Shown piece by piece: positions 1,391 to 31,737 of a DNA stretch of 64,000 nt (its first letter is position 1; every line of letters starts with the position of its first letter). The notes below the pieces were generated by a model. The model was not told the origin of the DNA. It did no database searches and was given only the letters and a program-made list of their open reading frames with translations. The DNA is from a virus, in the IMG/VR virus record IMGVR_UViG_3300032294_002964, positions 1 to 64,000 of that record; one strand, written 5' to 3'. A program made the position numbers and the translations under genes.

Positions 1391-1398
1391 TAAGTTTG
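1391..1398 (+). promoter_or_regulatory. Bacteroidetes primary-sigma -7 element (TAnnTTTG) upstream of the RNase P RNA
   Basis: TAAGTTTG ends 5 nt before the P1 helix. Confidence 0.55.
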
Positions 1399-1403
1399 TA
1401 TAA

Positions 1404-1627
1404 GAGTGTGGAGGAATCATCGCTGGTTTAAAAACTGGAGGAAGTTCACGACTACTAAACCTAACTTGGGAGATATAAAGTTGTGGCTGTTTCGGCCCAA
1501 CCTCTGGATCGTTACTACCAAGGAAGTAGCAACTCAAACAGAACGAGGGTGTCGGTTTCCCTATGAGTTCGGGTTGAGGCATAGATAAATGATGATATAG
1601 AACAGAATCGTGGCTATACTCGCACTC
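1404..1627 (+). ncRNA. rnpB: RNase P RNA, bacterial type A, minimal (~225 nt)
   Basis: GC-richer intergenic island with GAGGAAGUUCACGA (CR-I), AGAUAAAUGAU (CR-IV) and ACAGAAUCGUGGCUA (CR-V). Helices pair by eye: P1 1404-1413/1619-1627, P2 1416-1421/1591-1596, P3 1423-1429/1432-1438, P4 1443-1451/1608-1615 with bulged U, P5 1452-1455/1526-1529, P6 1457-1461/1554-1558, P7 1465-1469/1518-1522, P15, P16, P17. Confidence 0.9.
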
Positions 1628-1653: not shown

Positions 1654-1953
1654 ATGGACTTTATTCGTTATAATCTAATTTCAAAAATCTTGACTAAGTA
1701 TCGAGAAAATCGAAACATGTATAATCATGATAACTTCTTCTATTTTGAAAATAGTGTAAATAAGATTAATCGAATCGGTAAAGGATTTCTATATAATGAG
1801 GAAGAAATAATGCCACTTGAATGGCAAGATATCAAGGGAAAAGAACTCCTTGAAATTCTAAAACAAATGAATCAAAAGAATTTCTTCTTCTATAAAAACA
1901 TAGATGGTAAATTCTACAAAACCAGACCTAAGAAAAGAAATGTTAAAGAATAA
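1654..1953 (+). CDS. Hypothetical protein
   Basis: ORF in operon context; no recognised motif. Confidence 0.55.
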   Translation: MDFIRYNLISKILTKYRENRNMYNHDNFFYFENSVNKINRIGKGFLYNEEEIMPLEWQDIKGKELLEILKQMNQKNFFFYKNIDGKFYKTRPKKRNVKE

Positions 1954-2685: not shown

Positions 2686-3189
2686 ATGATGAGTGTGCCT
2701 TGCTCCAATTGCACAGCAAAATGTTGCAAAAATTATGATGTTTTTATTGACCACGAAGATCTGAATATATCAGATGATTTATCATTTATCAAAATTATTG
2801 AATATGATAAATCATATGGATATGTTCCTAAATTTAATCTTTGGAAAGACGGTAAAAAGAAAAAGTGGGTTCTTTGCTTAAACAATCCTGAGAAAGTTTG
2901 TCAGTTTCTTAAAGATGATAAGTGTTCTATTTATGATAAACGACCATTGATATGTAGAACTTATCCACATTATGTTGATGATGATAAGATCAAAACGATG
3001 AAGAATCTATGTCCAGTGAAATGGAATTTATCAGAACTTGAAAAAGTTGAACTAAGAATCAATTATGAAAAGCTTTTAGTAAATTTTTTAGCATTTGAAA
3101 CTATTTGTGACCAATGGAATAAAATCGTTACAAAAGAGGATAATTTAGAAAAATTTCTTATATTTGTAAAAAACTATCATTTTATATGA
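2686..3189 (+). CDS. YkgJ-family cysteine cluster (Zn/Fe-S) protein
   Basis: CxxCxxxCC ... CQFL...CSIYDKRPLICRTYP signature. Confidence 0.85.
   Translation: MMSVPCSNCTAKCCKNYDVFIDHEDLNISDDLSFIKIIEYDKSYGYVPKFNLWKDGKKKKWVLCLNNPEKVCQFLKDDKCSIYDKRPLICRTYPHYVDDDKIKTMKNLCPVKWNLSELEKVELRINYEKLLVNFLAFETICDQWNKIVTKEDNLEKFLIFVKNYHFI
3159..3166 (+). promoter_or_regulatory. Bacteroidetes -7 promoter element TATATTTG
   Basis: Matches TAnnTTTG about 20 nt upstream of the Nudix start; the same motif occurs at 4547, 5057 and 6822. Confidence 0.5.
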
Positions 3190-3710
3190 TTATAGATCGT
3201 AAAAATAAATACAAAGGTTATCTCAATATTGACGAGATTACCTATAAAACAAAGTCTGGTAAAGAGGGTAAACGCGAATTAATGGTTCGTCAAAATGCGG
3301 TTGCCGCACTTCTTTACAACACAGAAACTGAGAAATATATTCTAATCTCTCAATGGCGACCAGGTTCAGCATCTGATATTATTGAAATTGTGGCTGGTAC
3401 ACTTGATAAACCAGGTGAAGATCCACGAGATGCAATGAAGCGTGAGATTGATGAAGAGGTTGGATACGAAACAGATTCAATCAAATTGATTGATGAATGT
3501 TATATGTCACCGGGTGGATCAAGTGAGGTAATCACTATTTACTTCTGTGAAGTATCTAAGAAGATTGGTGCTGGTGGTGGAGTTCCTGGTGAGCTTGAAG
3601 AGATTGACACGATTGAAATGGATCGTGAAGAGTTAATGACAACTCGATTTAAAGATGCAAAAACAATTATTGCCGTAAACTGGGCAAGATATAACCATAA
3701 TGTAAAATGA
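3186..3710 (+). CDS. Nudix hydrolase (ADP-ribose/NDP-sugar pyrophosphatase, NudF/NudK-like)
   Basis: Nudix box G-x5/6-E-x7-REIDEEVGY plus QWRP and YMSPGGSSE motifs. Confidence 0.85.
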   Translation: MIIDRKNKYKGYLNIDEITYKTKSGKEGKRELMVRQNAVAALLYNTETEKYILISQWRPGSASDIIEIVAGTLDKPGEDPRDAMKREIDEEVGYETDSIKLIDECYMSPGGSSEVITIYFCEVSKKIGAGGGVPGELEEIDTIEMDREELMTTRFKDAKTIIAVNWARYNHNVK

Positions 3711-7226: not shown

Positions 7227-9464
7227 ATGAAATACATATTTACATTTATTTTAACACTGATAACATTTTCAGTTTTTTCACAAATTGATACCACTGTACT
7301 TCCACTAAGTACAGATAGTCTCAAACTATTAACTCTGGTTGATTCTTCTTCATTACCGGCTATTGAGATTGTTGGTATTCGTAGTAATCCTACTGATCCG
7401 ATTACTACAACAAGGATTAATATGGATTCAGTTAGATTCACTTATCAAGGTGGTGATCCATTTTTTACCATTAACCAATGGTCTCCTAATGTTCTTACAC
7501 AATCAGATAATGGTTCTCAATATGGATATTCATATATGAGAATTCGCGGATTTGATCAAACTAAAATTAATTTTACACTTAATGGAATCCCATTAAATGA
7601 AATGGAAGACCAAGGTATCTACTTTAGTAATATGCCTGGTTTTTTAAATAACATTTCTAATATACAAGTTACTCGTGGTATTGGCACATCTCAATATGGA
7701 ACAACATCTATTGGTGGTTCCGTTAATATGGAGACGATATCTCCACTACAACGGTCTTTAAGGTTTAATCTTAATCAAGGTTCTTTTAATAATAAACAAA
7801 CATCCATTATCTACAATAGTGGATTTTTAGGTAAGTCTAAATTTGCTTTTAGCTCAAATGTATCTTATTTAGCTACTGATGGATTTAGAGATAATACTCA
7901 ATCTGAAGGATTTAATTACTTTGGACAAGTTGGATATTTCTCCCGAAAAAATACGGTAAGACTATATGGATTTACTGGTATGGCAAAGAATAATCTTTCT
8001 TGGCAACCCGTTTCTCGAAATGGATATAATGTGTATTCATACGGATTTGATACACTTGGTAATTATACAACATTCGATAATGTTAACTACTTTCAAAATG
8101 GTACAAATCAAAATTATAGAACTAATGCTAATGGTAATATAGAACGTGATCGATTCAATCAAAATTTTGTGGCACTTAATTGGATAAATTATGCAAAATC
8201 AAACTTGAAGTATAACTCCTCACTTTATTTTATAAATATTAATGGATCTTACAATACAAGAGAACCTTATCATCTCAGAGGACTGGTTGTAGACAATGAA
8301 ATTATTGGTGATGAATTTTATCCTGAAATATTCAAATATAGTTTGAACTCATACCAATTTGGTGGTATGTCTAATATGGTTTATAATTGGGGTGGATTTA
8401 CATTTAATACAGGCCTTAACTATAATAATTATAGACGAGAGCATAGAAGAGGATTTTACGACAGACCAATGTCTTTTGATAGTACTCAATACTATGTTAA
8501 TACTGGATTTAAAAATGATCTTATTACATACTCAAAAATTAACTATCAGTGTAATAAGTTTAACTATTTTATTGATCTTCAATATCGAAATGTCACATTT
8601 AAATATTTAGATAATAAGTCTGGATTTGAAAAAGATTATACTGCTGAAATTTTATATCATCAATGGAATTTCTTTAACCCCAAAGCTGGTGTAAAGTTAA
8701 TTGATAGTGACTATGAGGCATGGATATCATTTGGCAAAACAAGTAGAGAAGTAACACGAACTGATCTATTTTATGGATATGATGATGTCGATATAAATAA
8801 TGGTGTTGTTTCTAATCCTCTACAGGGTAATATTACACTGAATTTTACACCAGAACAGATTTATGATGCTGAAATTGGACATAAACTAAAGTTCCGTAAT
8901 TTAGACCTATCATATAACTTTTATTATATGTTAACTCAAAATGAGAGACTTAATAACGGTACCTATAATGAAATAGGTATGCCACTAAAGTCTATTATGG
9001 ATAGAGTTGAAAGAAAAGGATTTGAACTAGAATCTAACTACAATTATAAAAAACTAAAAGTATCGGTAAATGGATCTTACTCATTGAATAATATATTCAC
9101 AGATAGTCCAGTGATTACTGTACCGGCGAATACACCAACTTATATGTTAAATCATTCAGTTTCATACGGTAGAAAATGGATGGTTTCTGTAAATGGTAGT
9201 TTGATGTCGAGAATTTACTTAGATAACACAAATGATAAAAACTATTCAACACCACAGTATTACATAATGAACTTTATTGGTTCATATAATTGTGATAGAG
9301 TTAGACTATCATTCACTATCAATAACATCTTGAATAAGAGATACTTTTTACCTGGTGGAATTATCAACAATTCAACACCAAATGGTATTGATAAGATTGC
9401 TGGATTTTATCCAGGTATGACACGAAGCTACTTTGTAAACGCTACATTTGACCTATGGAAATAA
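7227..9464 (+). CDS. TonB-dependent outer-membrane receptor (Bacteroidetes vitamin-uptake type)
   Basis: Signal peptide; plug motif MRIRGFDQTKINFTLNGIPLN..IQVTRG.G.S.YG..SIGGSVN; beta-barrel C-terminus NNILNKRY...R.YFVNATFDL. Confidence 0.9.
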   Translation: MKYIFTFILTLITFSVFSQIDTTVLPLSTDSLKLLTLVDSSSLPAIEIVGIRSNPTDPITTTRINMDSVRFTYQGGDPFFTINQWSPNVLTQSDNGSQYGYSYMRIRGFDQTKINFTLNGIPLNEMEDQGIYFSNMPGFLNNISNIQVTRGIGTSQYGTTSIGGSVNMETISPLQRSLRFNLNQGSFNNKQTSIIYNSGFLGKSKFAFSSNVSYLATDGFRDNTQSEGFNYFGQVGYFSRKNTVRLYGFTGMAKNNLSWQPVSRNGYNVYSYGFDTLGNYTTFDNVNYFQNGTNQNYRTNANGNIERDRFNQNFVALNWINYAKSNLKYNSSLYFININGSYNTREPYHLRGLVVDNEIIGDEFYPEIFKYSLNSYQFGGMSNMVYNWGGFTFNTGLNYNNYRREHRRGFYDRPMSFDSTQYYVNTGFKNDLITYSKINYQCNKFNYFIDLQYRNVTFKYLDNKSGFEKDYTAEILYHQWNFFNPKAGVKLIDSDYEAWISFGKTSREVTRTDLFYGYDDVDINNGVVSNPLQGNITLNFTPEQIYDAEIGHKLKFRNLDLSYNFYYMLTQNERLNNGTYNEIGMPLKSIMDRVERKGFELESNYNYKKLKVSVNGSYSLNNIFTDSPVITVPANTPTYMLNHSVSYGRKWMVSVNGSLMSRIYLDNTNDKNYSTPQYYIMNFIGSYNCDRVRLSFTINNILNKRYFLPGGIINNSTPNGIDKIAGFYPGMTRSYFVNATFDLWK

Positions 9465-9991
9465 TAGCAGTTATATTTAGTCTTTTATCAGTGTGGCTAA
9501 CATCAAAGAATAATATTTGGTGTTGGCCGATTGGTATTGTAGGAGTTTTAGGATTTGCTTATCTTTTTTATACGAAAGGTGAGTGGGGTAATTTAGTTCT
9601 ACAGTTTATATTTTTATCACAATCAATAGATGGTTGGATTAATTGGAATAAACCAAGTACAAAAGTATCTAAGATAAGGAAAAATGAGTTGTATAGTCAT
9701 ATAATGGGTCTAATTGTATTAGGTACTGTTATATCAATAATAACAACAATTTCAGGAAGTACTCATGTTGTATTAGATAGCATAACAACTACTCTAAGTA
9801 TTGCGGGGATGTTCTTACTAATACACAAAAACTTAGAGGCTTGGTATCTTTGGATAGTGGCTGATATTTTATATGTGGTTTTATTTTTAAAAAATGAACT
9901 TTACCTATCATCTTTAGTATATTTTGTGTTTACTATACTAGCATATTATGGATATAAAAACTGGAAAAAACAATTAAAAAATGGGATTTAA
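9455..9991 (+). CDS. pnuC: Nicotinamide riboside transporter PnuC
   Basis: NIWCWPIGIV, GWINW, LDS.TT.LSI, EAWYLWIVAD and YYGYKNW; multi-TM. Confidence 0.9.
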   Translation: MEIIAVIFSLLSVWLTSKNNIWCWPIGIVGVLGFAYLFYTKGEWGNLVLQFIFLSQSIDGWINWNKPSTKVSKIRKNELYSHIMGLIVLGTVISIITTISGSTHVVLDSITTTLSIAGMFLLIHKNLEAWYLWIVADILYVVLFLKNELYLSSLVYFVFTILAYYGYKNWKKQLKNGI

Positions 9992-10223: not shown

Positions 10224-10444
10224 TGAAAGTAAACTATCCACAACCTGGTAGAAAATACAATCACTATAAAGGTGGGCTATATCAGGTACTATTTTTATCA
10301 AAACAAACTGAAACTGGTGAAGTTTTAGTAAACTATCAATCTTTACTATTTGGATCTTACTTCTCAAGACCTTTAGATTCTTGGAATGAACTAACTCCAG
10401 ATGGTGAAGTTAGATTTATTCTTATAGAAGATGAAAAGGTTTAA
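10223..10444 (+). CDS. DUF1653-family protein
   Basis: G.KY.HYKG..Y.V......ET.E..V.YQ.L......RP.....E......RF signature. Confidence 0.8.
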   Translation: MKVNYPQPGRKYNHYKGGLYQVLFLSKQTETGEVLVNYQSLLFGSYFSRPLDSWNELTPDGEVRFILIEDEKV

Positions 10445-11429
10445 AAATGGTTTAGTATTAGGTAAAATGTATCCTTTTACAAAGGGTCACCAGTATCTTA
10501 TTGATACTGCGATATCTAATGCTGAAACAGTTCATGTTATCATCACACATAACCTTTCACAATCTATTCCAGGTGAAGTGAGATATAATGCAATAAAAGA
10601 GACATATAAAAATAATCATAATGTAAAAGTCTATTCAATATCGGACGAAGGTATTCCAGCTTATGATTATGAGTGTGAGACATTAGAAGAGTTTTACTCA
10701 TACTGGGTACCACTTGTATATTCACAAGTTGAATACTTAGATGTCGTATTTACATCTGAAAATTACGGAGAAGACTTTGCTAAATATTTAGGGATTGAAC
10801 ATTTCTTAGTTGATAAAGATAGAACTCATGTTCCAATATCTGGCACTCTTGTTAGAGAAGATCCACATAAACATTGGGACTATATTGCAGATTCTATGAA
10901 ACCATATTTTGTTAAAAGAATTGCTATCATGGGACCAGAGTCTGTTGGTAAGTCAACATTAGCTAAAAATGTTTCTAATACTTTAGGAACTAATTTTGTA
11001 CCAGAGTATGGAAGATTAGTTTATGAAATTAATAATTCAGTGACTATTGATGATTTCATTCCAATCTCAATAGGTCGTCAAGAAATTGAAGACTGGATGA
11101 TAAAACACTCAAAAAAATTCATAATTTGTGATACAGAGGATATAACGACATATCTTTTTTCAAAGATGTATTGTCCTGATGAATATAAAAAAGTCGAACC
11201 ATACTTCTTAAATTTGCTTGAATCGAAGTCTAAATATGATCTTTACATCTTATTAAAACCAGATTGTGAAGGTGTTCAAGATGGAACAAGAAACTTTTTA
11301 GAAGAAAGATGGGATCACTATGAAGTAATAAAATCTGAATTAATCAATCGAGGTTGTAATTTCGTAGAGATCGGTGGAGATTGGATTGAAAGGAGTAAAA
11401 AATCATTAAGACTAATCAATGATTTATAA
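10431..11429 (+). CDS. nadR: NadR-type NMN adenylyltransferase / ribosylnicotinamide kinase (no HTH)
   Basis: GKMYPFTKGH (HxGH-like), VFTSE.YG and ISGT.VR; second domain GPESVGKSTL, EYGR and CDT. Confidence 0.9.
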   Translation: MKRFKNGLVLGKMYPFTKGHQYLIDTAISNAETVHVIITHNLSQSIPGEVRYNAIKETYKNNHNVKVYSISDEGIPAYDYECETLEEFYSYWVPLVYSQVEYLDVVFTSENYGEDFAKYLGIEHFLVDKDRTHVPISGTLVREDPHKHWDYIADSMKPYFVKRIAIMGPESVGKSTLAKNVSNTLGTNFVPEYGRLVYEINNSVTIDDFIPISIGRQEIEDWMIKHSKKFIICDTEDITTYLFSKMYCPDEYKKVEPYFLNLLESKSKYDLYILLKPDCEGVQDGTRNFLEERWDHYEVIKSELINRGCNFVEIGGDWIERSKKSLRLINDL

Positions 11430-17082: not shown

Positions 17083-19194
17083 ATGGATAAAATAATTTCA
17101 GATGAAAACTACATCAAGGAAAATTACGACATCAAAAATGCGTTATCTGAGGATGATGATGATGTTGATGATAGTTTTAAACAAAAGAAAAACCAAGGTA
17201 ATTCAAAAACACCTATACTCGATTCATACAGTCGAGACCTTACTAAGTTAGCCGAGGAGGGAAAGCTTGATCCAATCGTAGGTCGTATGAAAGAAATTGA
17301 GAGAGTTTCTCAAATTCTATCAAGACGCAAAAAAAACAATCCAATTCTTATTGGTGAACCAGGTGTTGGTAAATCTGCAATTGCAGAAGGATTGGCACTT
17401 AAAATTGTTCAGCGTAAATGTTCAAGAGTTCTTTTTAATAAAAGAATTGTAACATTAGACTTGGCTTCTATGGTTGCTGGTACTAAATACCGTGGTCAAT
17501 TTGAAGAAAGAATTAAAGCACTTATGGGTGAGTTAGAAAAGAATCCAGATGTTATTCTTTTCATTGATGAAATTCATACTATGATTGGTGCTGGTGGTGC
17601 TTCAGGTTCTCTCGACGCATCTAATATGTTTAAACCAGCTTTAGCGCGTGGTGAAATTCAAATCATTGGAGCAACTACAATAGATGAATATCGTAAGCAC
17701 ATTGAAAAAGATGGTGCACTTGAAAGGAGATTCCAGAAAGTTATGGTTGAACCCGCATCTGTTGATGAAACATTGGAAATTCTTGGCAACATTAAAGATA
17801 AATATGAGTCACATCACAATGTAAATTATACAGAAGATGCTATAAAGGCATGTGTTGATTTAACATCTCGATACATGACTGATCGTTTCTTACCAGATAA
17901 GGCTATTGATGCTCTTGATGAAGCTGGATCACGCGTTCATATTTCTAATATTGTTGTTCCTAAAGAAGTAACAGATATTGAGCAAAAACTTCTTGATATT
18001 AAGGACAAAAAACAAGAAGTTGTTAAGAGTCAGAGATATGAAGAAGCTGCAAAGCTTCGTGATGTTGAGAAACAACTTCAAAAACAACTTGAAGAGGCTC
18101 GTAAGAAGTGGGATGAAGATACTAAAGAAAATCGTCAAACTGTAACTGAAGAAAATGTTGCTGAAGTAGTCTCAATGATGACTGGCATTCCACTTCAAAA
18201 GGTTTCTCAAAATGAGAATAAAAAGCTTGCAATGATGCAAGAAATGATGAAAGGTAAGGTAATTGGACAGGATGAGGCTATTCAAAAAGTAGTTAAAGCA
18301 ATTCAAAGAGGTCGTGTTGGATTGAAAGATCCTAATCGTCCAATCGGTTCTTTTATTTTCTTGGGACCTACTGGAGTTGGTAAAACAGAATTGGCTAAAC
18401 AATTGGCTAAGTATCTATTTGATTCAGAAGATTCACTTATTCGTGTTGATATGTCTGAATTTATGGAAAAGTTTGCAGTATCAAGATTGATTGGAGCGCC
18501 TCCAGGATATGTTGGGCATGACGAGGGTGGTCAACTAACTGAAAAAGTTAGACGCAAACCTTACTCTGTAATTCTTCTCGACGAGATTGAGAAAGCTCAT
18601 CCAGAAGTATTTAACTTACTATTGCAAGTTCTTGATGATGGTCAATTGACTGATTCACTTGGTCGTAAAGTTAATTTTAAGAATACTATTATCATTATGA
18701 CCTCTAATACCGGTTCAAGAAAATTGAAAGATTTCGGTGTGGGTGTAGGTTTTAATACTAAGAGTAGAGAAGGTTCTAAATCTTCAGAAGAGAAAAGTGT
18801 TGTTGAAAAGGAATTGAAGAAGACATTTGCTCCTGAGTTTTTAAATCGTATTGATGATGTAATAACTTTCAACTCACTTGAAAGAGAAGAAATTACTAAG
18901 ATCATATCTCTTGAGGTTGATAAATTAAAAAATCGAGTTAAAGACTTAGAATATGAATTGGAACTATCAGAAGAAGCATTGAATGTAATTGTTGATAATG
19001 GATTTGACCCACAATATGGAGCAAGACCTCTAAAGAGAGCAATTCAAAGATATGTTGAGGATGTTTTAACAGAAGAGATTATTACAAATAATCCAGAAAA
19101 GGGATCTAAGCTATTGTTGGACTACAACAAAGAAGATGATAAAATGTTTGTAACTATAAAGAAGAATACAAAGAAAAAGAAAACTGGAGAATAA
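17083..19194 (+). CDS. clpC: ClpC-type AAA+ ATPase lacking the N-terminal Clp repeat domain
   Basis: Walker A motifs GEPGVGKS and [12 protein letters not shown]-domain YEEAAKLRD, ClpP-docking VGF loop and GARPLKR. Confidence 0.9.
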
Positions 19195-20785: not shown

Positions 20786-21433
20786 TTAATTTATTCTTTT
20801 GTAAAACTCATCAGAGCAGATTTTATCAATATACATATATCCATTATTCAATAAAATATCTCTAATATTTGAATTATCATTATTTTCAATTCCAATAATT
20901 TTAATATTGTATTTTTTAAAATCTATTCCCTTCAGAATTTTTTCTTCTGATCCCTCTGTATCTATTGATAGATAATCAATATCATTCATATTATTTTCTT
21001 CCAGAATAGAAGATAGTGTTCTACACTCAACACTTAATGTTTCAAAATCAGAATTATGTTCAATTGACTCTCGTAAAAGTCGATTCCAGTGATCGTTTGA
21101 ATAGTTTTCTTTGATACCACTTATCATACTTATATAGTCATAACCGGCTATAAATTCGGCATGTCCATTATAATCACTTATTGCACAATTATATTTTTTA
21201 CAAGTTCTAATTGAATTTTTTAGTTTTTGGAAACTAACAGGATGTGGCTCGATGCATATCCCACTCCAATTAAGTTCTAAATCCATATAAGCGGTATTAG
21301 ATGCAATAAATGGATCACAAGCACCAACCTCAACATAATTTAAATTGTTTACTCTACCTAATAACTTATCAAGTACAAACTCCCAGGGCTGTGGATATGG
21401 TAAATGTTGTTCTATATAATATGGTCTATTCAT
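20786..21433 (-). CDS. FkbM-family methyltransferase
   Basis: YVEVGA.D...SNT, W.GICIEP and LSIDTEGSE. Confidence 0.85.
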   Translation of the reverse strand: MNRPYYIEQHLPYPQPWEFVLDKLLGRVNNLNYVEVGACDPFIASNTAYMDLELNWSGICIEPHPVSFQKLKNSIRTCKKYNCAISDYNGHAEFIAGYDYISMISGIKENYSNDHWNRLLRESIEHNSDFETLSVECRTLSSILEENNMNDIDYLSIDTEGSEEKILKGIDFKKYNIKIIGIENNDNSNIRDILLNNGYMYIDKICSDEFYKRIN

Positions 21434-21479
21434 TTTACGGTATTTTTTTGTTTATAATTTTTTATAAGCGTTGAAAAAA

Positions 21480-22424
21480 TTATGATAAATCGTATAATTT
21501 TATAAATTTTTCCATAACAATACTAGGTATATATTCCTGATAGCAATTCCAATTGTCAAATTTATTACTATCAAAATTTAAAAGTAAATTCATTAAATCC
21601 TCATAATTATTATATAATAATGCTTTATTTCCTAGTATATCAATATGATTTCTTTCAGGTGATCCATTCCAAGTAATCACTGGCTTATTTTTTATAGAAA
21701 ATTCCGCACACGTCAAACCGAAAGATTCTCCGATTTGTCTGGCATGTAAATGTGCATCACAAGTATTTATAAATTTAACTTTAAAATTCAAATCTGGATT
21801 TGGCTCTAAAAATATACACCTTTCATGTTCTATAAATTTTTCAGTATTTTGAAATAGAAAATAATAATTATGATTGAGTGGTAAAATATCTCTTATAACT
21901 TCCTTCACAAAGTTTATATCAAATGAGTCATATCCACCGTTTCTACCAAATACAATAGAATTAGAAGGTATAGATAACTCTTCTCTCAAATTATTTTCAT
22001 TTTCAGGCAGATTAATCATATGTGGAACATAATCTATTCCAGATATTTTACTTAACCAAGGTGAGCATACATAATATTTATCACCGTGTATATTATAACT
22101 TGATATATTAGCGGAAACTGCCATTATTAAATTTTTACAAACGCTTGATATAACACCATCATTTGAACCACCTTTAATTGCAAAAAAATAATCACACTTC
22201 TCATCAATTAATATTTTATCTATTTCATTTTTGTAATTATATCCAAATATCTTAAACTCTTTAATCATTTTTTCTTTAACAAGATCACTATTTTCTAAAT
22301 AATTCTTATTATATAAAATAATACATTCAAAATTATAAAAATGTTTCAAATAGTACGCATAATCATATAAAGCTACTGTGGTTCCTCTTATTGATAGTAT
22401 ATTATCATGTAATGCTATTTTCAT
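21480..22424 (-). CDS. GT-B (GT4-like) glycosyltransferase
   Basis: RGTTVALYDYA and CDA.LHAR..GESFGL..AE (E-x7-E). Confidence 0.75.
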   Translation of the reverse strand: MKIALHDNILSIRGTTVALYDYAYYLKHFYNFECIILYNKNYLENSDLVKEKMIKEFKIFGYNYKNEIDKILIDEKCDYFFAIKGGSNDGVISSVCKNLIMAVSANISSYNIHGDKYYVCSPWLSKISGIDYVPHMINLPENENNLREELSIPSNSIVFGRNGGYDSFDINFVKEVIRDILPLNHNYYFLFQNTEKFIEHERCIFLEPNPDLNFKVKFINTCDAHLHARQIGESFGLTCAEFSIKNKPVITWNGSPERNHIDILGNKALLYNNYEDLMNLLLNFDSNKFDNWNCYQEYIPSIVMEKFIKLYDLS

Positions 22425-22446
22425 TCCTTAATAATTTTATTAAAAA

Positions 22447-23082
22447 TCATAGTTTATTTTTATTTTGAAATAAAACATTTCCCATATCTACCCAAGGCAA
22501 ATCTTCAAAAACTATTTCAAAATTATTCTTTATCATAAATTCTTTAAATTCTGGATATAACATAACACCCTCATAGGTCTCAATAAGAGAAACTTCAGAA
22601 TAAATAAATTTGGTATTTCTTAAACAATTTGGTGATGATTTTAACACTATTGGTTCCAATCCTTGCATATCTAGCCACATGAAGTCGATAATGTTCAAAT
22701 TATTAGATTCATAAAAGTCATCTAAATTTATACATTCTATATCTATTTCCTCTTTAAATGATATTTCTGGATGTACTTGTAAATGATCTTTTGGTTTTAA
22801 TAATGATGAAGATACTGCTACATGACCAAACCTATCACTGAAATATATTTTAGATTTCTCAGTTTTATTAGAAAGTGCTAAATTGTAAATCTCAACGTTT
22901 AATTTACCACTTGTGTTTTTAAGTGTATCATTAAAAAGATGAGGTATTGGTTCGAATCCATATATTTTACCATTGATAAAATAATTTGAGAAAAAAAGTG
23001 TATCTGATCCACCTGCTGTTCCAGCCTCAATTACAATACAATCATCCTTCAGATTATTTACTATCCATTTTTTTATATCCAT
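22447..23082 (-). CDS. FkbM-family methyltransferase
   Basis: IEAG, FEP, SSSLLKP, WLDMQGLE and EVS....Y. Confidence 0.85.
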   Translation of the reverse strand: MDIKKWIVNNLKDDCIVIEAGTAGGSDTLFFSNYFINGKIYGFEPIPHLFNDTLKNTSGKLNVEIYNLALSNKTEKSKIYFSDRFGHVAVSSSLLKPKDHLQVHPEISFKEEIDIECINLDDFYESNNLNIIDFMWLDMQGLEPIVLKSSPNCLRNTKFIYSEVSLIETYEGVMLYPEFKEFMIKNNFEIVFEDLPWVDMGNVLFQNKNKL

Positions 23083-23088
23083 TTTTTA

Positions 23089-23937
23089 TTATTTTTTTAT
23101 AATTGTTTCTATTTTGTTTAAAATTTTTGATAAGTCAATATTTGTTTGAAAAATTGGTTCATCATTAATTTTTTTATATAAAATATTATCATTATCTATT
23201 TTTTTTATATCCTCTATCATATCATCCATATTATTATAATTAATAAGGTTAATACAAGAATTTATATTAAAATCTACACTAAAAGACTTATCTGAGTAAT
23301 ATATTGGTATACAACCTGATACTTTAGCATGTAATAATTTCTCAGTGAAATATCCAGGATAAATTGAGTTTTCAAAACACATAGCAAATTTATATTCTGA
23401 TATTAAATCCATTTTTATTTTTTCACCATCCGGAATCTGTTTGAGATGTATTTTGCCAAAAGCATCAACACTTTTATATGTTGATAGTTTACTTAAAAAA
23501 TTCATTCTTATATTTTCTTTTCTGCTAAAAACAGTGCAGCAAAATTTATTCTTTTTTTTAGTGTTAAACTCATTTTCCCCATATAGATAATTAACTGGTA
23601 TTAGATACTCAGGATTTTTATAGGTTGATACACCAAACCAGTCTATATAAAAATACCATAAAGGTAGTCTTATATTTCTACTATTATAAGAGTCAATATC
23701 AAATGATAGAGAGTAGTCACACTGATTAAAATTTGGTCTAATATTTTCACCAGTGTAGAATATTTTTTTACAATGATTATATTTTTTATGTTCATTGCCA
23801 AAGCAACTATAGATTATAACATCGGCTTTTTCTGGACCTACTAGTTCCAAATTAGATACTAACTCTCTTATACTATAGAATAGAAAATTTCTATCATCTA
23901 TAAAATCATACCAAAAATCTAAAAAAGATATCTTCAT
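23089..23937 (-). CDS. GT10 alpha-1,3-fucosyltransferase-like
   Basis: FYTGEN.RP and YKFAMCFENS..PGYFTEKL. Confidence 0.85.
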   Translation of the reverse strand: MKISFLDFWYDFIDDRNFLFYSIRELVSNLELVGPEKADVIIYSCFGNEHKKYNHCKKIFYTGENIRPNFNQCDYSLSFDIDSYNSRNIRLPLWYFYIDWFGVSTYKNPEYLIPVNYLYGENEFNTKKKNKFCCTVFSRKENIRMNFLSKLSTYKSVDAFGKIHLKQIPDGEKIKMDLISEYKFAMCFENSIYPGYFTEKLLHAKVSGCIPIYYSDKSFSVDFNINSCINLINYNNMDDMIEDIKKIDNDNILYKKINDEPIFQTNIDLSKILNKIETIIKK

Positions 23938-23939
23938 TT

Positions 23940-24608
23940 TTAATTATTTTTATTTAAAGAAATTTTCCAATTAACGTCATTTTGTATAGTAGTTTCAAAT
24001 TCTGAATTTTGACTAGCTAAACTTGGTTCAAACCACCAATTATTTAAATTGAATTTATTAATTAATTTATTATAGAAAAAATCAGCTGGATATTTTGCAA
24101 ATTCTTCTATACTATCAACTACTTTTTCTATACATTTTTGACTAATTATAAAAGAATGAGTACATCTAGAACCATTCATTCTATAAACATTTTGATTGTT
24201 TACTATTTCAGCATGTAAGTCACAACAAGATCCCACCCATGCCAAATCCCAGTCTTCTGGTAACTGACTTTTATAGTTATTAAATCTATTTATAAAATCA
24301 TTTCCTAAAATAACATCATCTTCAAGTACTAAAATAGATTTATATTTTTTATAAGCATCTTTTAATATCCAACAATGTTTTAGTAACAAAGAGATTTCAG
24401 AAAGTTTAAGTATCCTGCCATTCTCCTCATCTTCAAAAATTTTAGTATATTGTTTTGATATCTCTATTAAATTCCAGTTATCTTTATCATAAACCTCTAC
24501 CCATTCATAATCAGATATTCCTAATGTGCTTAAGTGTTTAATTAGTCCTTCTTTTCTGTTAGAAAGTTTACTCCAATGGCAAATGTAAATTTTATCGATA
24601 TTTAACAT
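23940..24608 (-). CDS. GT25-family glycosyltransferase
   Basis: R, E.SL.LKH, LVLEDD and THSFIIS. Confidence 0.75.
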   Translation of the reverse strand: MLNIDKIYICHWSKLSNRKEGLIKHLSTLGISDYEWVEVYDKDNWNLIEISKQYTKIFEDEENGRILKLSEISLLLKHCWILKDAYKKYKSILVLEDDVILGNDFINRFNNYKSQLPEDWDLAWVGSCCDLHAEIVNNQNVYRMNGSRCTHSFIISQKCIEKVVDSIEEFAKYPADFFYNKLINKFNLNNWWFEPSLASQNSEFETTIQNDVNWKISLNKNN

Positions 24609-24611
24609 AAT

Positions 24612-25373
24612 TTATTTATATTTTTCATAAATTTCTTTCATCTGATTTGGTCTAATATAATGGAAAGACATAGGTTTTTTTAAGCAATCTTGCAATGAGA
24701 TAGGATAATCTAAGTACCACTTTGCATTCTCATCACCATTGATAGCACCTTCATAATGAGATGGTGGTTGACTAAGTATATAAGGAACATGAGTAAGATC
24801 AATATTAAAGTATTTTTTTATCATATATCCAATCGCAACATCAGAGAATGGATAAGCACCTCCCGATATTTCTATCCAATGTTTATTAAATTCATCAATA
24901 ACTTCATAGCACTTTTTCATTAGAGAGTTACTAATAAAAAAACCTGCTCCCCCGGCAACCGCTCTAAATGTACTATCTTTTTTATCTTGAACCTCATGTA
25001 TTGAAGGAATGTGTGACCAAAATCCACAAGGTTGACAAAGTATTAAATCCGATTTAGGATCATATTTTTTTAATTCATTTTCTGTTGAATTTCTAAATAA
25101 TATAGCATCACAACTTGTCATACAGTACCAATCAAGTGAATCATCATCTTCAAACATGTATTTGAATCCTAATTGTTGTTTTAAAAAATGACTGTTATAG
25201 TCCTCACCTGCTTCTTTTATTGGAATTAAAGATGTATCACCACCATTACCTCCAAAAAGATAGACTTTATTAAAATCATTTATCCAAGTATTTTTACAAG
25301 CGGTATATCTCTCAACTAAATTACTTGAGGTAACAACACCAACTGATATATTATTGTTTTTATCCATTACCAT
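24612..25373 (-). CDS. Fringe/GT31-like glycosyltransferase
   Basis: TW, DWY, GGAGFFIS, SDVAIG and SFHY. Confidence 0.65.
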   Translation of the reverse strand: MVMDKNNNISVGVVTSSNLVERYTACKNTWINDFNKVYLFGGNGGDTSLIPIKEAGEDYNSHFLKQQLGFKYMFEDDDSLDWYCMTSCDAILFRNSTENELKKYDPKSDLILCQPCGFWSHIPSIHEVQDKKDSTFRAVAGGAGFFISNSLMKKCYEVIDEFNKHWIEISGGAYPFSDVAIGYMIKKYFNIDLTHVPYILSQPPSHYEGAINGDENAKWYLDYPISLQDCLKKPMSFHYIRPNQMKEIYEKYK

Positions 25374-26163
25374 TACTCAATTCTTTTTTAATAAAATATT
25401 TCCAATATCCTATTTTAATTTTATTTAAATTCCAGTCTTTGTTTATAAACTCATCATATTTACTATTAAGGAAATTTTCATTTATTTCAGACCAGTCATT
25501 AATAAAAAGTATTGGTAAGTCCTTAAAAAGTGAGTGTGTATTTTCATATCTAACTATTGGTATAGATCCCATGTATAATGATTCCCAAAGTCTATGTGTG
25601 TCTATGCCGTTTCCTCTTGGACAAAATACAAACTTTGAAGACTTTATTTCTCTTAGGTATTTTATCCGACCATCAATTGTATTATTAATGCTACCAATTA
25701 AATTCCATTTTTGATTGTAAAATAAGTTATAAATCAACCTTCTTTCTGATTCATAATTACTTAGATTGAAGTTTAAATAGGATAAGTTGGACTTATCTAT
25801 TTCTTCTTTAAAAACAGACAGCATTATTTCTTGATTTCCATAAATTCTATGTATAGGTGAATCATCACAATCATTAGTTATTCCTAGTGGAATTCCGAAT
25901 GTGTTTTCACAATCACTACTTTTATTAATACAAAAAACTTTTTCAAAATTTTTACTTATTCTATCTGTCACTGGATAATCTGAATGTCCTATAAAAGTTA
26001 TCTTGTCAATTTTTTGTGGATGTATTTGTCCTCTCCAATTTAATTGTCCATGATAAAAAAAATCAGTTTTTATGTAACAAATATTATTCTCTTTGCTGAA
26101 TTCTAAAAATCTATCTTGTGTTATGATATCATCAACATTCCAGTCTAACTCTTGTATTTTCAT
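25360..26163 (-). CDS. Exostosin/GT47-like glycosyltransferase
   Basis: KFVFCPRGNGIDTHRLWESLY.G.IPIV; exact start uncertain. Confidence 0.7.
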   Translation of the reverse strand: MKIQELDWNVDDIITQDRFLEFSKENNICYIKTDFFYHGQLNWRGQIHPQKIDKITFIGHSDYPVTDRISKNFEKVFCINKSSDCENTFGIPLGITNDCDDSPIHRIYGNQEIMLSVFKEEIDKSNLSYLNFNLSNYESERRLIYNLFYNQKWNLIGSINNTIDGRIKYLREIKSSKFVFCPRGNGIDTHRLWESLYMGSIPIVRYENTHSLFKDLPILFINDWSEINENFLNSKYDEFINKDWNLNKIKIGYWKYFIKKELSNGNG

Positions 26164-26941
26164 AATTTTTAAGATCATTTATTGTGTCAATTAATAAATT
26201 CTCATATGTGTATAGATTACTATGAGACTTTAGATAATATTCTTTTCTCTTTTCATATTCATTGTATTTAGAAATATTTTCAACTACATAATCATCATAA
26301 TTCATATTGAAATTTTTATATAAATCTCTAATAAAATCGTTGACAAATATTAATCTACCCGAACCTATAATTTTATGATCTGTTGATTTTATAGACTGTT
26401 GAACAACAAAATTTGGATGTACTATATCTCGATAGAAATATGTATCTCCTATTTCTATCATTTTTTTCTCCATTATAGAACTAAATATTTTCCCAAATAA
26501 GAAGTTACTATCTCTTCTTATGGAGTTGAAATTAAAAGGATATAGTATTATAACATTACTATAATCTTCTTTATTATCTATAATATATTTTGATATTTTA
26601 TATTTTGATTGTAAATATGGAGTGGTATAGAAATTAAAGTTATCTGATAGTGAAATTTGACCATCATATTGATTCCACAGCTCGCAGGTAGAATATACAA
26701 TAACTTTTCTAGAAATTTCTTTTAGTTCATCAATGATTTTTAATGTAAGATAAAAATTAACTTCATCATAAACTTTTAAATCTTTGATAAATTTTCTAGA
26801 TTCGCCTAAGCAAATAAACACTCTATCCCAATTTTGATCTTTTAATTTATCAATATCTAAGTTTCTAGATGAAACTCTAACATATTCTTTTGGAAAGTAA
26901 TATGATAGTTGAGAAGTATTTCCAATTATTAGGCTGTTCAT
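26132..26941 (-). CDS. NAD-dependent epimerase/dehydratase-like (NDP-sugar modifying)
   Basis: IGNTSQL (degenerate GxxGxxG), ST.E, YxxxK (YLQSK), FN and RD.VH. Confidence 0.7.
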   Translation of the reverse strand: MNSLIIGNTSQLSYYFPKEYVRVSSRNLDIDKLKDQNWDRVFICLGESRKFIKDLKVYDEVNFYLTLKIIDELKEISRKVIVYSTCELWNQYDGQISLSDNFNFYTTPYLQSKYKISKYIIDNKEDYSNVIILYPFNFNSIRRDSNFLFGKIFSSIMEKKMIEIGDTYFYRDIVHPNFVVQQSIKSTDHKIIGSGRLIFVNDFIRDLYKNFNMNYDDYVVENISKYNEYEKRKEYYLKSHSNLYTYENLLIDTINDLKNYENTRVRLEC

Positions 26942-28017
26942 TTTATATTATTTAATATATTACTCCACTCAGTATAAATTTTATCTTTTCTTATTGAGTT
27001 GAATTGTTCCATATTTTTAGAAACTTCTTGTAGATTTGTTTGTTGCAACTTCAATGAAAGTTCTTCAAAACTATCAAAATAGATAATATGAGGCATCCAT
27101 TCTTGATTATAAAAATCAGAATATTTAATCCAATTAGACATTATTTCTAAATTGTTATATCTATTTGGATCATTATTGCTATCACAATTTATAACTGAAC
27201 CCGGTGGCATCCAAGTTATTGGATTCCAAGATAATTCACTGAGTACTTGACCAGGATATTTACTAAATAATTCTAACATTAGATTATAACTTGGACAAAA
27301 AATAGGAAAATTTGCAGTATAATACTCAAATATTGACATAGTTGAGCAATTATAAGGTATAATTATAATTCCTTTATATGAATAGAGATCTGTCCATTCA
27401 AATTTTCCAAGTGATGATTTATCAATAATAGAATTCTGATCAAATTTTATTGGTAGTCTTCCAGAATATAAAAATTGAGATTTAGTTGGATTATATTTTG
27501 AATTAGTATATTCACAAATATTTGGTATCAATTTACACTCTCTTTGTACGAAAAATTCAAAATATTTTTTATCATATTCAGAATTAGCAACCGGTATTAT
27601 TATTCCATCATCTATTCCTTTTCTCAAATAATCATTAAAATAGTTCCATTTTTCAGCATTACTTTGAAAAGGAACTTCATACCTTATAGGTACTTGTATA
27701 ATTATTGGTTTTTTGAATTTCTCATAAAGAAGTGAAAAAGAAGGAGGATAAGTACATAAAAATGCATCATATTGTTCCAGTTCATTCTTATATCTCTCAT
27801 AGAAATCATCAGACATTTTTTTATCAAGAGACCACCATCTTGGTCTACCGTTTGATAAAATGTCCTGATTAACAATCTCTACCTTAACTGAGTCGTTTCC
27901 AAATATCCAATTTGATCCTGATATCGACCAACTAGTAACTTCATTTCCAAGATTTTCAAAAATTTGTTTCAGGTCAGCAATTACTGATACATGGCAGTCT
28001 AAATTAAATATCTTCAT
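26938..28017 (-). CDS. Putative glycosyltransferase (GT-B-like)
   Basis: NLD.H.SV..D and IPY..STMSIFE.Y; cluster context. Confidence 0.5.
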   Translation of the reverse strand: MKIFNLDCHVSVIADLKQIFENLGNEVTSWSISGSNWIFGNDSVKVEIVNQDILSNGRPRWWSLDKKMSDDFYERYKNELEQYDAFLCTYPPSFSLLYEKFKKPIIIQVPIRYEVPFQSNAEKWNYFNDYLRKGIDDGIIIPVANSEYDKKYFEFFVQRECKLIPNICEYTNSKYNPTKSQFLYSGRLPIKFDQNSIIDKSSLGKFEWTDLYSYKGIIIIPYNCSTMSIFEYYTANFPIFCPSYNLMLELFSKYPGQVLSELSWNPITWMPPGSVINCDSNNDPNRYNNLEIMSNWIKYSDFYNQEWMPHIIYFDSFEELSLKLQQTNLQEVSKNMEQFNSIRKDKIYTEWSNILNNIK

Positions 28018-28018
28018 T

Positions 28019-28687
28019 TTAATTGTTTAAATATATTTGATATGGCATACCGTTTTTACCTATACCTGGTCTTGGAATAGTTTCACCGTAATAAATTGGA
28101 GAATCGTCAACAATATTTCTAAAGTCAAGATTATTATCTTTTAAGACATTATAAATCTCTAACCAATCTTCAGCAAAATGACATTCAATAATAGCAAATT
28201 TACATTTTCTTAATGTGTTTAAGCCACCTTTGATAACTCTTAATTCAGCTCCTTCAACATCTATTTTAATATAATCTACTTGTTTATCTTCAAAGTACTC
28301 ATCCAGTGAAATAGATTTTACATTGCCTATTACATTCATTTTACGATGTGCTGTATCGTGACCTACAATATTTGAAACATGATTGCCAGAATTGTTATTA
28401 TCACCATATATATCAACATATCCAGAAATATCTGATATTCCTATATTCTCAATTATACAGTTTTTTGATTGTAGATGTTTAATTGCCTCAAAATTAAAAG
28501 GATTTAATTCAAAGGAATATATTAATCCATTATCACCCGCTAATTTTTTAAAAAATGATGTTATAACTCCATTACAAGCACCTACATCACAGTAGATACC
28601 ACCTGATTTTGCATTTTCTTGAAATTTAATGGATATTAGTCTATCCCAATCATTTACTTGTATTTTATATTTTTCCCAAGCTTCCAT
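28019..28687 (-). CDS. FkbM-family methyltransferase
   Basis: DVGA..G, SFE and IKIDVEGAE. Confidence 0.85.
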   Translation of the reverse strand: MEAWEKYKIQVNDWDRLISIKFQENAKSGGIYCDVGACNGVITSFFKKLAGDNGLIYSFELNPFNFEAIKHLQSKNCIIENIGISDISGYVDIYGDNNNSGNHVSNIVGHDTAHRKMNVIGNVKSISLDEYFEDKQVDYIKIDVEGAELRVIKGGLNTLRKCKFAIIECHFAEDWLEIYNVLKDNNLDFRNIVDDSPIYYGETIPRPGIGKNGMPYQIYLNN

Positions 28688-28701
28688 ATTTTTATTATTT
28701 T

Positions 28702-29532
28702 TTACCAGTATGTTGATCCCTCAACTACTTGATGATTTCTTGTTTTTTCTGAATCATATGGTCTTTTCCAATTTGAATTATAATACTTATTAACAGCCGC
28801 CATATTATCCCATCTATTTCCTTTAATACCAAACATAATTTGCAATCCACCTCCAACATGTACAACTGGTTTACCCATTTTCTTTATTTGATTGCAAATG
28901 GGTAATCCGTATGCACCACATCCAACAAGTGCTATATCAAAATTTAATTTTTGAATATTATTTACCATGTTCTCATAGCAAACATTCCAAGGTAGATCCG
29001 TATTACCACCACCGTGTGTTTGATATGTTTTAAAGGTAATTAAATCAAAATCCGGTAATATACTTTTATCTTCAAAAAGTAATTCTTTTTTAGAATATTG
29101 TTCACGAATAGAATCTTCAAATGGATGAACTACTAATACTCTTCTATTTTCCAAAAATTTACTCCACGGATTTTCATGGTAGAATGGCTCTAATGCTTGT
29201 AATCCAGATATAAACTCAGCATTTTTGCAATAAAAATTAGATATTATAAACTCTTCTGAATTTACATTATCAGGAAACCATATTGTTAATAAATCCATAT
29301 TTGACAAGGCATCAACATATTCATTTATAAAATAATCTAGCACAAAATCAGTAGGTGGTGTTATACCAGCATGATTAGATGCATGCCATCTTAGTGAGTC
29401 ATCCCAAGACTTTTTATTAAAAAAGTATTTAACTACTTGTTGCTCTACTGCTCCCATTTTTCCTGCTACAAATGGTATAGAAGATGATATTAACTCTCCT
29501 ATTTTTTTATTTCCTTGTTCTATTGATATCAT
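28702..29532 (-). CDS. Putative GT-D-like/glycan-modifying protein
   Basis: FDIALVGCGAYG...HVGG.LQ..FGI.G.RW; cluster context. Confidence 0.5.
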   Translation of the reverse strand: MISIEQGNKKIGELISSSIPFVAGKMGAVEQQVVKYFFNKKSWDDSLRWHASNHAGITPPTDFVLDYFINEYVDALSNMDLLTIWFPDNVNSEEFIISNFYCKNAEFISGLQALEPFYHENPWSKFLENRRVLVVHPFEDSIREQYSKKELLFEDKSILPDFDLITFKTYQTHGGGNTDLPWNVCYENMVNNIQKLNFDIALVGCGAYGLPICNQIKKMGKPVVHVGGGLQIMFGIKGNRWDNMAAVNKYYNSNWKRPYDSEKTRNHQVVEGSTYW

Positions 29533-29535
29533 ATT

Positions 29536-30210
29536 TTATCCTAATACATTTTTTATTATTTTCCAATAATCTGCATGTCTTACATCATTCTCATCAAAAA
29601 CATCTCCAACAAACTCATAGTTATTTCTTTTTGTTGGAAATGGTTTAATTTCACCACCAAAGCTTAAATTGAATTCAGAATGTTCTAAAGATCTGTTCTT
29701 AACAAACGGATAAATAACTGTTCCAAGAAAATCCTGATCAATTCCCTTTCTTCCAAACTTATTCCATTTTTCAATAATTTCAGAAAATCTTATATTTCTC
29801 AATATACCATTTCTACATCCCCACATACCACCTAAAATTGGAACCGTATGATACGGATGATCTCTCATAATGTGAAAGTCTTTATCAGACTCAATCCAAT
29901 CTTTTATTGCAAAAACCTCTCTATCTGAGAATCTAGAGTCACAATCTCTTGATAGAAATATATCAACATCTTCCTCCGCTGCCCAAAATCTCCAAAACAT
30001 CCCATGAAAAGAATCTTTAGATTTTACTAACACAACCTCGACATTATCACCCCTGATAGAATCAATTAATTTTGAATCACAAGTATCATCAATGTAAAAT
30101 CTTGATATCCATCCTGGAAAATATTTGTTCACCAAATCTATATTTTTTAACGCTCCTACCCAATACATTGGCGCATCTCCCCAAAGTGAGTATGATACTA
30201 TATTTTTCAT
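29536..30210 (-). CDS. Putative GT-A glycosyltransferase
   Basis: SYSLWG..Y..G, MFWRF, SRDCDSR, HIMRDHP.H...ILGGMWG and DQ.FL. Confidence 0.7.
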   Translation of the reverse strand: MKNIVSYSLWGDAPMYWVGALKNIDLVNKYFPGWISRFYIDDTCDSKLIDSIRGDNVEVVLVKSKDSFHGMFWRFWAAEEDVDIFLSRDCDSRFSDREVFAIKDWIESDKDFHIMRDHPYHTVPILGGMWGCRNGILRNIRFSEIIEKWNKFGRKGIDQDFLGTVIYPFVKNRSLEHSEFNLSFGGEIKPFPTKRNNYEFVGDVFDENDVRHADYWKIIKNVLG

Positions 30211-30219
30211 ATCTAAATT

Positions 30220-31068: not shown

Positions 31069-31735
31069 TATTATAATTATTTTTTACAAAAACACAATCC
31101 CATTGAATATTACCAACGAGTGAGTATCCTTTTTCCTTTAGAAATTCTGTTTCTTCATTAAGACCATAATTATTCTCTATTAAAAAACAAGTAATATCAA
31201 CTTTATCAAAATTTATTGACTTTAAAACACTAAGCTCTGCACCTTCCACATCTATTGAAATTAAGTCAATGTTTTTAACATTATGTTTATCAAACAGAGT
31301 CTCTAATCTCAGAGCTTTCATTTTAATTACTTCTTTTGTTGAATATAGCTCATGATCTTTTGGATATGAACTATACATTTGAAGCTCTCTATTAATTCTT
31401 TCTAAGTGTTGGCTATTATAAAATTCCATAATTCCTGATAATACATTACAAGGACCACTTATTGATAAAAAATTAACATCCATTTCAATATCAGAAATTG
31501 CACAATTCTCTTTTATTGATAATTCTCTAGATACATTAAGCATTTTACTAAACTCTATAGGATTTGGTTCAATTAAAAGACCCGACCAATTTCTTTCCTT
31601 TTCAAAGAAATAAGTATTTGATGCTCCGAATCCATCTAAAGCACCCACTTCAACAAAAAAACCATCTTTTTTTCCTTTAAAAATTTGAGAATCTAAAATT
31701 ACGTCTTGTTGAATTTGTGATTTACTATTTATCAT
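31061..31735 (-). CDS. FkbM-family methyltransferase
   Basis: SQ..QD, FVEVGA.DG..SNT and SIDVEGAE; paralog of 20786-21433. Confidence 0.85.
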   Translation of the reverse strand: MINSKSQIQQDVILDSQIFKGKKDGFFVEVGALDGFGASNTYFFEKERNWSGLLIEPNPIEFSKMLNVSRELSIKENCAISDIEMDVNFLSISGPCNVLSGIMEFYNSQHLERINRELQMYSSYPKDHELYSTKEVIKMKALRLETLFDKHNVKNIDLISIDVEGAELSVLKSINFDKVDITCFLIENNYGLNEETEFLKEKGYSLVGNIQWDCVFVKNNYNNG

Positions 31736-31737
31736 TT

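Follow-up and report, generated by a model that had tools for sequence, protein, structure and literature searches.

RNase P is regarded as a universal cellular housekeeping ribozyme. To our knowledge, the translation-related set of genes carried by phages has until now consisted of tRNAs, synthetases, the CCA-adding enzyme and ribosomal proteins. Reviews of RNase P (a 2024 review; PMC4919922) name phages only as sources of tRNA substrates. A full-text literature search, with subscription journals mostly outside its scope, turned up no account of an RNase P RNA that is encoded by a phage, and neither did Al-Shayeb 2020 together with 200 of its supplementary files, the 2024 RNase P review or a preprint on theta ribozymes.

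A natural RNase P RNA of about 200 nt, without nearly the entire specificity domain (S-domain), has been reported from Pyrobaculum/Thermoproteaceae (type P/T; Lai et al. 2010, as summarised in PMC4919922), and the bacterial catalytic domain (C-domain) alone is able to cleave pre-tRNA with or without RnpA, at a lower rate and affinity (PMC4919922). In the reduced RNase P RNAs of CPR bacteria, P12, P13, P14 and P18 are missing, and the Rfam scores do not reach the noise cut-offs (Lui et al. 2021, PMC8172020). Theta ribozymes, which are minimal HDV-like ribozymes, adjoin phage tRNAs, and this suggests a lesser dependence on host RNases; RNase P itself is treated as a host function in that work (bioRxiv 10.1101/2023.06.13.544163).

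A viral RNase P RNA of bacterial type without an S-domain is newly described here. It was found in the window, by which we mean the whole stretch of 64,000 nt analysed, namely the first 64 kb of a 92-kb IMG/VR virus record rated 13% complete by CheckV, which implies a genome of about 700 kb. The gene occupies positions 1404-1627 on the plus strand and is 224 nt long from P1 to P1, and we are confident that it codes for a genuine RNase P RNA of a phage, maintained by selection. With the type-A RNA of E. coli (M1 RNA) it shares an ungapped CR-I, P4 with its bulged U, P5, GCAA, the P15-P17 arm with the GGU of L15, the P6 pseudoknot to L17, CR-IV and CR-V, and RnpA, the protein partner of type A, is encoded by sister phages of the window. 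In contrast to M1 RNA, which has 377 nt, the window RNA lacks P8-P14, CR-II, CR-III and P18, is encoded by a virus and scores below the Rfam thresholds. It most likely descends from a bacterial type-A RNA whose S-domain has been cut to P7 and a hairpin.

The type P/T RNAs resemble the phage RNA in being about 200 nt long and in keeping the catalytic domain while the S-domain is nearly gone, but they are archaeal and cellular, and their model (RF02357) scored the window RNA at only 15.2 bits (E 0.022) against a cut-off of 60. Moreover, the phage RNA, unlike type P/T, has a P15-P17 arm of bacterial style, the GGU of L15, the P6 pseudoknot and a near-bacterial CR-IV. The likeness to type T pointed out in an earlier reading of this DNA, made from the sequence alone, holds as an analogy and not at the level of the type-T model; it looks like convergent reduction rather than shared descent, an evolutionary parallel to the minimal form of Pyrobaculum. 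Engineered C-domain-only bacterial RNAs have the same domain content as the phage RNA, but they are laboratory truncations of reduced rate and affinity, whereas the phage RNA belongs to a natural, selected family and carries a conserved stub (P7, the stem Px, GGGAG and CGUUAnUAC) that they do not have. The CPR RNAs differ in being cellular, single-copy and essential, and those of a sample scored 31-44 bits with our family model R1 (see below). Theta ribozymes are likewise phage-encoded and tied to tRNA maturation, but they cleave themselves in cis and are proposed to act on 3' trailers, whereas RNase P is a trans-acting enzyme that removes 5' leaders.

Anatomy of the RNA and its locus

The RNA gene lies in a gap of 309 nt, flanked by one gene on the minus strand (577-1344) and one on the plus strand (1654-1953), and with a GC content of 43-45% it forms an island in surrounding DNA of 15-30%. 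The divergent upstream gene, a flank outside the RNA, codes for 255 aa with a lipoprotein-signal-like N-terminus and without a family match. The downstream ORF codes for a conserved protein of 99 aa and starts 27 nt past the RNA on the same strand. A conserved terminator is absent between the two and a search for transcription signals found no intrinsic terminator for the RNA; co-transcription of the RNA and the 99-aa ORF is possible. None of the neighbour genes in the window is tRNA-related. Two ORFs that overlap the RNA (1406-1588, plus; 1274-1639, minus) had been dismissed as spurious in the sequence-only reading, and we agree, since the homologs described below carry indels of 1-2 nt and 25-29 nt together with paired compensatory changes. 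Genes of this kind are now overlooked by phage annotation or mis-called as small ORFs.

The consensus of the Bacteroidetes -7 promoter element is TAnnTTTG. A candidate box of this type, TAAGTTTG, can be read at 1391-1398 (plus strand) and ends 5 nt ahead of P1. The block TATATTAGCATATAAGTTTGTA around it is invariant in four relatives (L059, L067, L073 and L083) in which P1 varies, but it also falls within the promoter region of the divergent gene 577-1344. The proposal that the RNA has its own Bacteroidetes promoter is plausible; an own promoter would most likely drive transcription of the RNA. Sigma-70-like promoter matches were set aside, as they are not meaningful for a predicted Bacteroidetes host.

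For the anatomy, E. coli rnpB (M1 RNA) was used as the reference and directly aligned to the window RNA. All elements lie on the plus strand. The RNA is closed by P1 (1404-1408/1623-1627 and 1411-1413/1619-1621), followed by P2 (1416-1421/1591-1596) and P3 (1423-1428/1433-1438). CR-I with the 5' strand of P4, GAGGAAGUUCACGA (1438-1451), aligns without gaps to E. coli G61-G74, and the ungapped correspondence extends through the 5' strand of P5, so that window positions 1438-1455 equal E. coli G61-C78. In P4, 1443-1445 and 1447-1451 pair with 1608-1615; the U that bulges out is that at 1446, or the one at 1445, as the UU is ambiguous. P5 (1452-1455/1526-1529) is followed by the GCAA of J5/15 (1529-1532), equivalent to E. 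coli G246-A249 and including A248 and A249. The P6 pseudoknot, which shows covariation, joins AAACC (1457-1461) to GGUUU (1554-1558) in the loop of P17. The P15-P16-P17 arm (1533-1578) is composed of P15 (1533-1537/1574-1578), P16 (1541-1544/1567-1570) and P17 (1546-1549/1559-1562), all three of which covary; its L15 GGU is at 1572-1574, and GGGU at 1571-1574 corresponds to G291-G292-G293-U294 in L15 of E. coli. CR-IV, AGAUAAAUGA, the 3' strand of P2, and CR-V with the 3' strand of P4, ACAGAAUCGUGGCUA, lie within 1583-1616 in the E. coli alignment. In either RNA, CR-V begins 19 nt after the start of CR-IV, and CR-I, CR-IV and CR-V follow each other in canonical order and spacing both in the E. 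coli alignment and in the match to the archaeal Rfam model RF00373. The complete catalytic domain proposed in the sequence-only reading was therefore recovered with every helix that had been listed.

That reading had also held that P4 is diverged yet paired, and this was borne out by compensatory changes and by the bulged U. In canonical numbering, the pairs of the window P4 are A66-U360, G67-C359 and U68-G358, then the bulged U69, and then C-G, A-U, C-G, G-C and A-U. Thus, the window has G-C at 67-359, U-G at 68-358 and a distal CACGA/UCGUG, against CCGGG/CCCGG in E. coli. The helix appears to have been rewritten with its geometry intact. Likewise, about 5 nt occupy the place of P18 in comparison with E. 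coli, in line with the proposed absence of this helix. At the position of P18, three relatives (L030, L056 and L093) have an insertion between P15 and CR-IV (alignment columns ~257-320), which in some of them forms a GNRA-capped hairpin; P18 has thus not been lost by every member of the family.

The reduction of the S-domain is evident from the distance between the strands of P5, 70 nt in the window versus 164 in E. coli. P7 (1465-1469/1518-1522) encloses 48 nt, in agreement with the earlier estimate of about 50 nt and with the conclusion drawn from it that the S-domain is largely deleted. Within the remnant (1465-1522), CR-II, CR-III and P8-P12 are not present; what is left is P7, a single hairpin and a pair of short conserved strands, GGGAG (1468-1472) and CGUUACUAC (1510-1518), with the stem Px (1472-1474/1508-1510). 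Both P7 and Px covary in a structure-blind alignment. An extra hairpin within Px (1480-1501) is confined to the subclade of the window, that is, to the window and L059, L066, L067, L073 and L083, and in the last of these it shows one compensatory change from G-C to A-U. The stub strands GGGAG (1468-1472) and CGUUAnUAC (1510-1518), which flank a variable hairpin, are nearly invariant and more conserved than a linker needs to be.

Homologs, covariation and Rfam models

The first homologs were found by blastn and model searches in the huge-phage genomes LR745206 and LR756502. Further loci were collected with two pattern scans of IMG/VR and one of metagenomes, which brought the number to about 80. 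Four of the eight matches of the first pattern (L009, L011, L014 and L016) had arisen by chance within coding DNA and were left out. In 80 of 83 matches a CR-I box was present 115-212 nt upstream of the 3' signature, and 56 distinct sequences of 199-319 nt remained after removal of duplicates.

In a structure-blind test, 33 sequences were aligned with MAFFT and the RNase P structure with both pseudoknots was imposed afterwards. As many as 92.6% of the cells pair, compared to 71.8% in shuffled alignments and 31-44% when the partners were slid, and change on both sides was seen in 42 of 58 pairs; none of 500 shuffles reached the observed values. The G, A and A of J5/15 were invariant in this alignment. 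A covariance model, R1, was built on the core only, from CR-I to the 3' strand of P4. It scored the window at 163 bits and 62 distinct members at 54-168 bits. The P4 and P6 pseudoknots lie outside the structure of R1. P4 is nevertheless 98-99% paired (98.2% on the R1 alignment, n=62), with compensatory changes in 5 of 8 pairs, and P6 is 95.6% paired on the same alignment with compensatory changes in all five pairs. Taken jointly, the two pseudoknots are 97.2% paired and 10 of the 13 pairs are compensatory (n=62), a value that was not reached in any of 500 shuffles.

The conservation of CR-IV and CR-V is partly circular, since the retrieval pattern fixed parts of both, while CR-I, GCAA, GGU and all of the helices were unconstrained by it. 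Both blocks are also kept in five members that were reached without the pattern (LR745206, LR756501, the Stenotrophomonas phage DLP6, G154 and G157). The window RNA shows the traits of the family: an R1 score far above background, a CR-I of the GAGGAAGUUC type, the stub with GGGAG and CGUUAnUAC, and residence in a phage.

At gathering scores, no Rfam family was matched anywhere in the window. Once the filters were relaxed, RF00373, the Rfam model of archaeal RNase P, aligned to exactly 1404-1627 (plus strand) over model positions 1-288, with the CR-I and CR-V blocks matched, at 40.7 bits (E 1.8e-10 for the stretch searched and 1.2e-11 for the whole record). No other Rfam model matched better, yet the score is below the gathering score of 84 bits, and by sequence the core of the RNA is nearer to bacterial than to archaeal RNase P. 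The type-A model RF00010, with a gathering score of 100 bits, had no match in the record of the window and gave 40 bits on the relative L093; the type-B model RF00011 gave no match at E <=10. Even the copy in LR745206 yielded nothing with cmscan, although blastn and R1 (131 bits) show its homology. The mini RNase P RNA is thus covered by no Rfam family. The sequence-only reading had hinged on a covariance-model match or covariation, and a sub-threshold match to RF00373 was found together with strong covariation. The plain minimum free energy fold was no better than that of shuffled sequences (z -0.49 on the plus and -1.08 on the minus strand), but this z-score is uninformative because the RNA is pseudoknotted.

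Phage residence, tRNA genes and RnpA

The genomes above 634 kb studied by Al-Shayeb 2020 (PMC7162821) are all placed in the Mahaphage clade, for which Bacteroidetes hosts are predicted. The DnaK of the window is 82% identical to that of LR745206, 78% to that of LR756502, 64% to that of LR756501 and 50% to that of Lak-A1, and two orphan proteins of the window match only huge-phage genomes of the Mahaphage type. From these protein comparisons, the window can be assigned to a Mahaphage-type megaphage, of which it would be a fragment. LR745206, LR756502 and the 735-kb LR756501 carry the RNA once each (126-131 bits with R1); under stricter filters, R1 found no match in Lak-A1 and LR756504, which is weak evidence of absence. 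The earlier reading had allowed for a cellular chromosome with this RNA as its native rnpB. DnaK, the orphan proteins and the copies in complete megaphages all indicate phage DNA.

Several other genes of the window deserve mention. A NUDIX hydrolase (3186-3710), a PnuC-type NMN transporter (9455-9991) and a NadR-like protein with an AAA_28 and a citrate-lyase-ligase-like domain (10431-11429) are encoded near each other and look like a phage NAD+ salvage module; modules of such kind have reportedly been seen in jumbo phages. A TonB-dependent receptor with Plug and beta-barrel domains, an outer-membrane protein typical of Bacteroidota, is encoded at 7227-9464, an ATP-dependent protease (phrog_4871, 837 bits) at 17083-19194, and the DnaK/Hsp70 chaperone already compared with that of LR745206 at 55396-57267. 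On the minus strand, 20786-33897 is filled by 17 ORFs that follow directly upon one another and code for about 200-360 aa each; several are mutual paralogs, such as 20786-21433 with 31061-31735 (39% identity) and 23089-23937 with 31738-32565 (33% identity).

In the 82 family loci (516 kb), we counted 264 tRNA genes, all of them on the strand of the RNA. A tRNA gene was found within 1 kb at 24 loci and within 300 nt at 16. In large phages outside the megaphage subclade, the RNA sits inside tRNA arrays and always on the tRNA strand. In the megaphage subclade, there is no tRNA within 1.5 kb of the RNA (LR745206, LR756502, LR756501, G154 and G157); the genomes of the first three carry 54, 44 and 59 tRNA genes, respectively. 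Of the 291 distinct phage tRNAs at the family loci, no more than 29 (10%) encode the 3'-CCA with which the GGU of L15 would pair, a point that counts against a role in tRNA processing; the conserved GGU would thus act on tRNAs whose CCA is added post-transcriptionally. L020, a viral contig on which the mini RNase P RNA also occurs, has an ARAGORN tRNA call with the anticodon CUA (1869-1941, minus strand; labelled Pyl), which may be an amber suppressor of a stop-codon-recoded phage.

LR756502 and LR745206 also encode RnpA, with PF00825 and TIGR00188 above their cut-offs and an intact RNR motif, KKFKRAVDRNR[VI]KRLMRE. Among the IMG/VR contigs, four carry an rnpA of phage type, and the only one of them that is nearly complete (G154, 476 kb) harbours the RNA as well, with a score of 162 bits; in the 58-kb fragment G157, RNA and rnpA are about 11 kb apart. 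No rnpA was found in LR756501, G152 and DLP6, which are complete genomes with the RNA. Some phages thus appear to supply both subunits, and others to need the RnpA of the host. A search of the 92-kb record of the window for tRNA arrays and rnpA, as suggested earlier, found neither a tRNA gene nor rnpA, which says little since the record covers only about 13% of the genome; the relatives supplied both, with tRNA arrays in the family and rnpA in LR745206 and LR756502. The clade of the window probably makes both subunits of RNase P, with no borrowing of host RnpA. Thus, of the uses of host RnpA first considered (borrowing, retargeting or sequestration), sequestration is unlikely in this clade, because LR745206 and LR756502 encode an RnpA with an intact RNR motif, while borrowing may apply to LR756501, G152 and DLP6.

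Possible function and its alternatives

The RNA is homologous to RNase P RNA, conserved in structure, of phage origin, linked to tRNA genes across its family and accompanied by rnpA in several genomes, and it keeps the catalytic and substrate-contacting positions (the bulged U of P4, GCAA and the GGU of L15). We consider a catalytic role in tRNA processing likely. The RNA would be transcribed, most likely from its own promoter, and would assemble with RnpA, phage-encoded in the closest complete relatives and presumably taken from the host in other members. The holoenzyme would then cut the 5' leaders off pre-tRNAs, chiefly those of the phage. More tentatively, megaphages might carry a self-sufficient two-subunit RNase P that matures their 44-59 packed tRNAs independently of the host and without reading the tRNA elbow. 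Such an enzyme would matter if infection left the RNase P of the host in short supply, inactivated or under attack, and some of these tRNAs may be unusual or suppressor tRNAs.

The same reduced domain content also fits an inactive molecule. A non-catalytic mimic that sequesters host RnpA or pre-tRNAs, and so throttles host tRNA maturation, would be a takeover device, and the lack of the S-domain and P18, the weak catalysis of isolated C-domains and the presence of the RNA without an own rnpA in LR756501, G152 and DLP6 would all be in line with it. However, positions for chemistry and docking are kept beyond what concerns protein binding, namely the bulged U of P4 together with the geometry of this helix, GCAA and the L15 GGU, the closest relatives encode their own RnpA, and the gene is located within phage tRNA operons on the same strand, where a mimic would also inhibit the tRNAs of the phage itself; we regard this explanation as quite improbable. 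An active enzyme of RNase P type that no longer reads the T loop could instead have been retargeted, with main substrates other than ordinary pre-tRNAs, for instance host RNAs, polycistronic phage mRNAs, tRNA-like elements, or tRNAs that are unusual or act as suppressors. In favour of this, the RNA has lost the S-domain and thereby the reader of the D and T loops. The copies of the megaphage subclade stand by themselves, with no tRNA gene nearer than 1.5 kb, and a conserved ORF starts 27 nt downstream of the RNA without a terminator in between; besides, the stub motifs GGGAG and CGUUAnUAC are nearly invariant. Nevertheless, ordinary tRNA arrays are the strongest association across the family, the elements that contact the acceptor stem and CCA are retained, and the type-P/T RNAs of Pyrobaculum are minimal RNase P RNAs without nearly the whole S-domain (PMC4919922). 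Retargeting is therefore unlikely.

An origin outside phages was considered as well, with the RNA as the native rnpB of a small-genome cell such as a CPR bacterium on a misclassified contig, or as a decaying host fragment. The CPR version was tested because reduced RNase P RNAs below the Rfam thresholds are known in these bacteria (PMC8172020), and one family member resides in a Candidatus Roizmanbacteria MAG. This member (L093, JAAXWV010000224.1; 146 bits) is the only match of the 3' signature among 185,579 prokaryotic species genomes, and no second rnpB was detected in the MAG. Its contig, however, is only 3 kb long and contains six tRNAs on the strand of the RNA, which is the pattern of the phage arrays, and it is probably mis-binned phage DNA. 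In 151 CPR genomes, only this MAG had a family-like RNA; the other 150 reached at most 38 bits with R1, against 126-168 bits within the family, and the 31-38 bits of four of them are consistent with diverged rnpB genes of their own. Matches of 111 nt in CPR genomes turned out on re-scoring to be ordinary spans of 215-286 nt. Three curated complete megaphage genomes hold one copy each, and decay is ruled out by the pervasive compensatory change. A non-phage origin is thus largely refuted, and we give it hardly any probability.

A phage RNA that acts in tRNA processing remains the preferred reading. A virus-encoded RNase P RNA, together with phage RnpA in some megaphages, would extend the translation genes of phages to the maturation of tRNA 5' ends, and, if the two-subunit reading is true, an RNase P ribozyme would here be seen for the first time to be encoded by a virus, and it would at once be a minimal RNase P of bacterial type that exists in nature. 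As a naturally selected bacterial-type RNase P RNA of about 200-225 nt without an S-domain, it offers a compact subject for studies of structure and mechanism and bears on how much of the ribozyme substrate recognition needs. The question can be addressed directly at the bench, since an unannotated copy is present in the cultured Stenotrophomonas phage DLP6. This member (105814-106006; 80 bits, E ~2e-18) ends 19 nt upstream of a tRNA-Arg, and cleavage at the 5' end of this tRNA is predicted to produce its 3' end; it sits in an unannotated gap of 258 nt in the tRNA cluster (KU682439.2, 105768-106025; L106, 2797-3054), a region in which ARAGORN calls several tRNAs that are absent from the annotation of the record.
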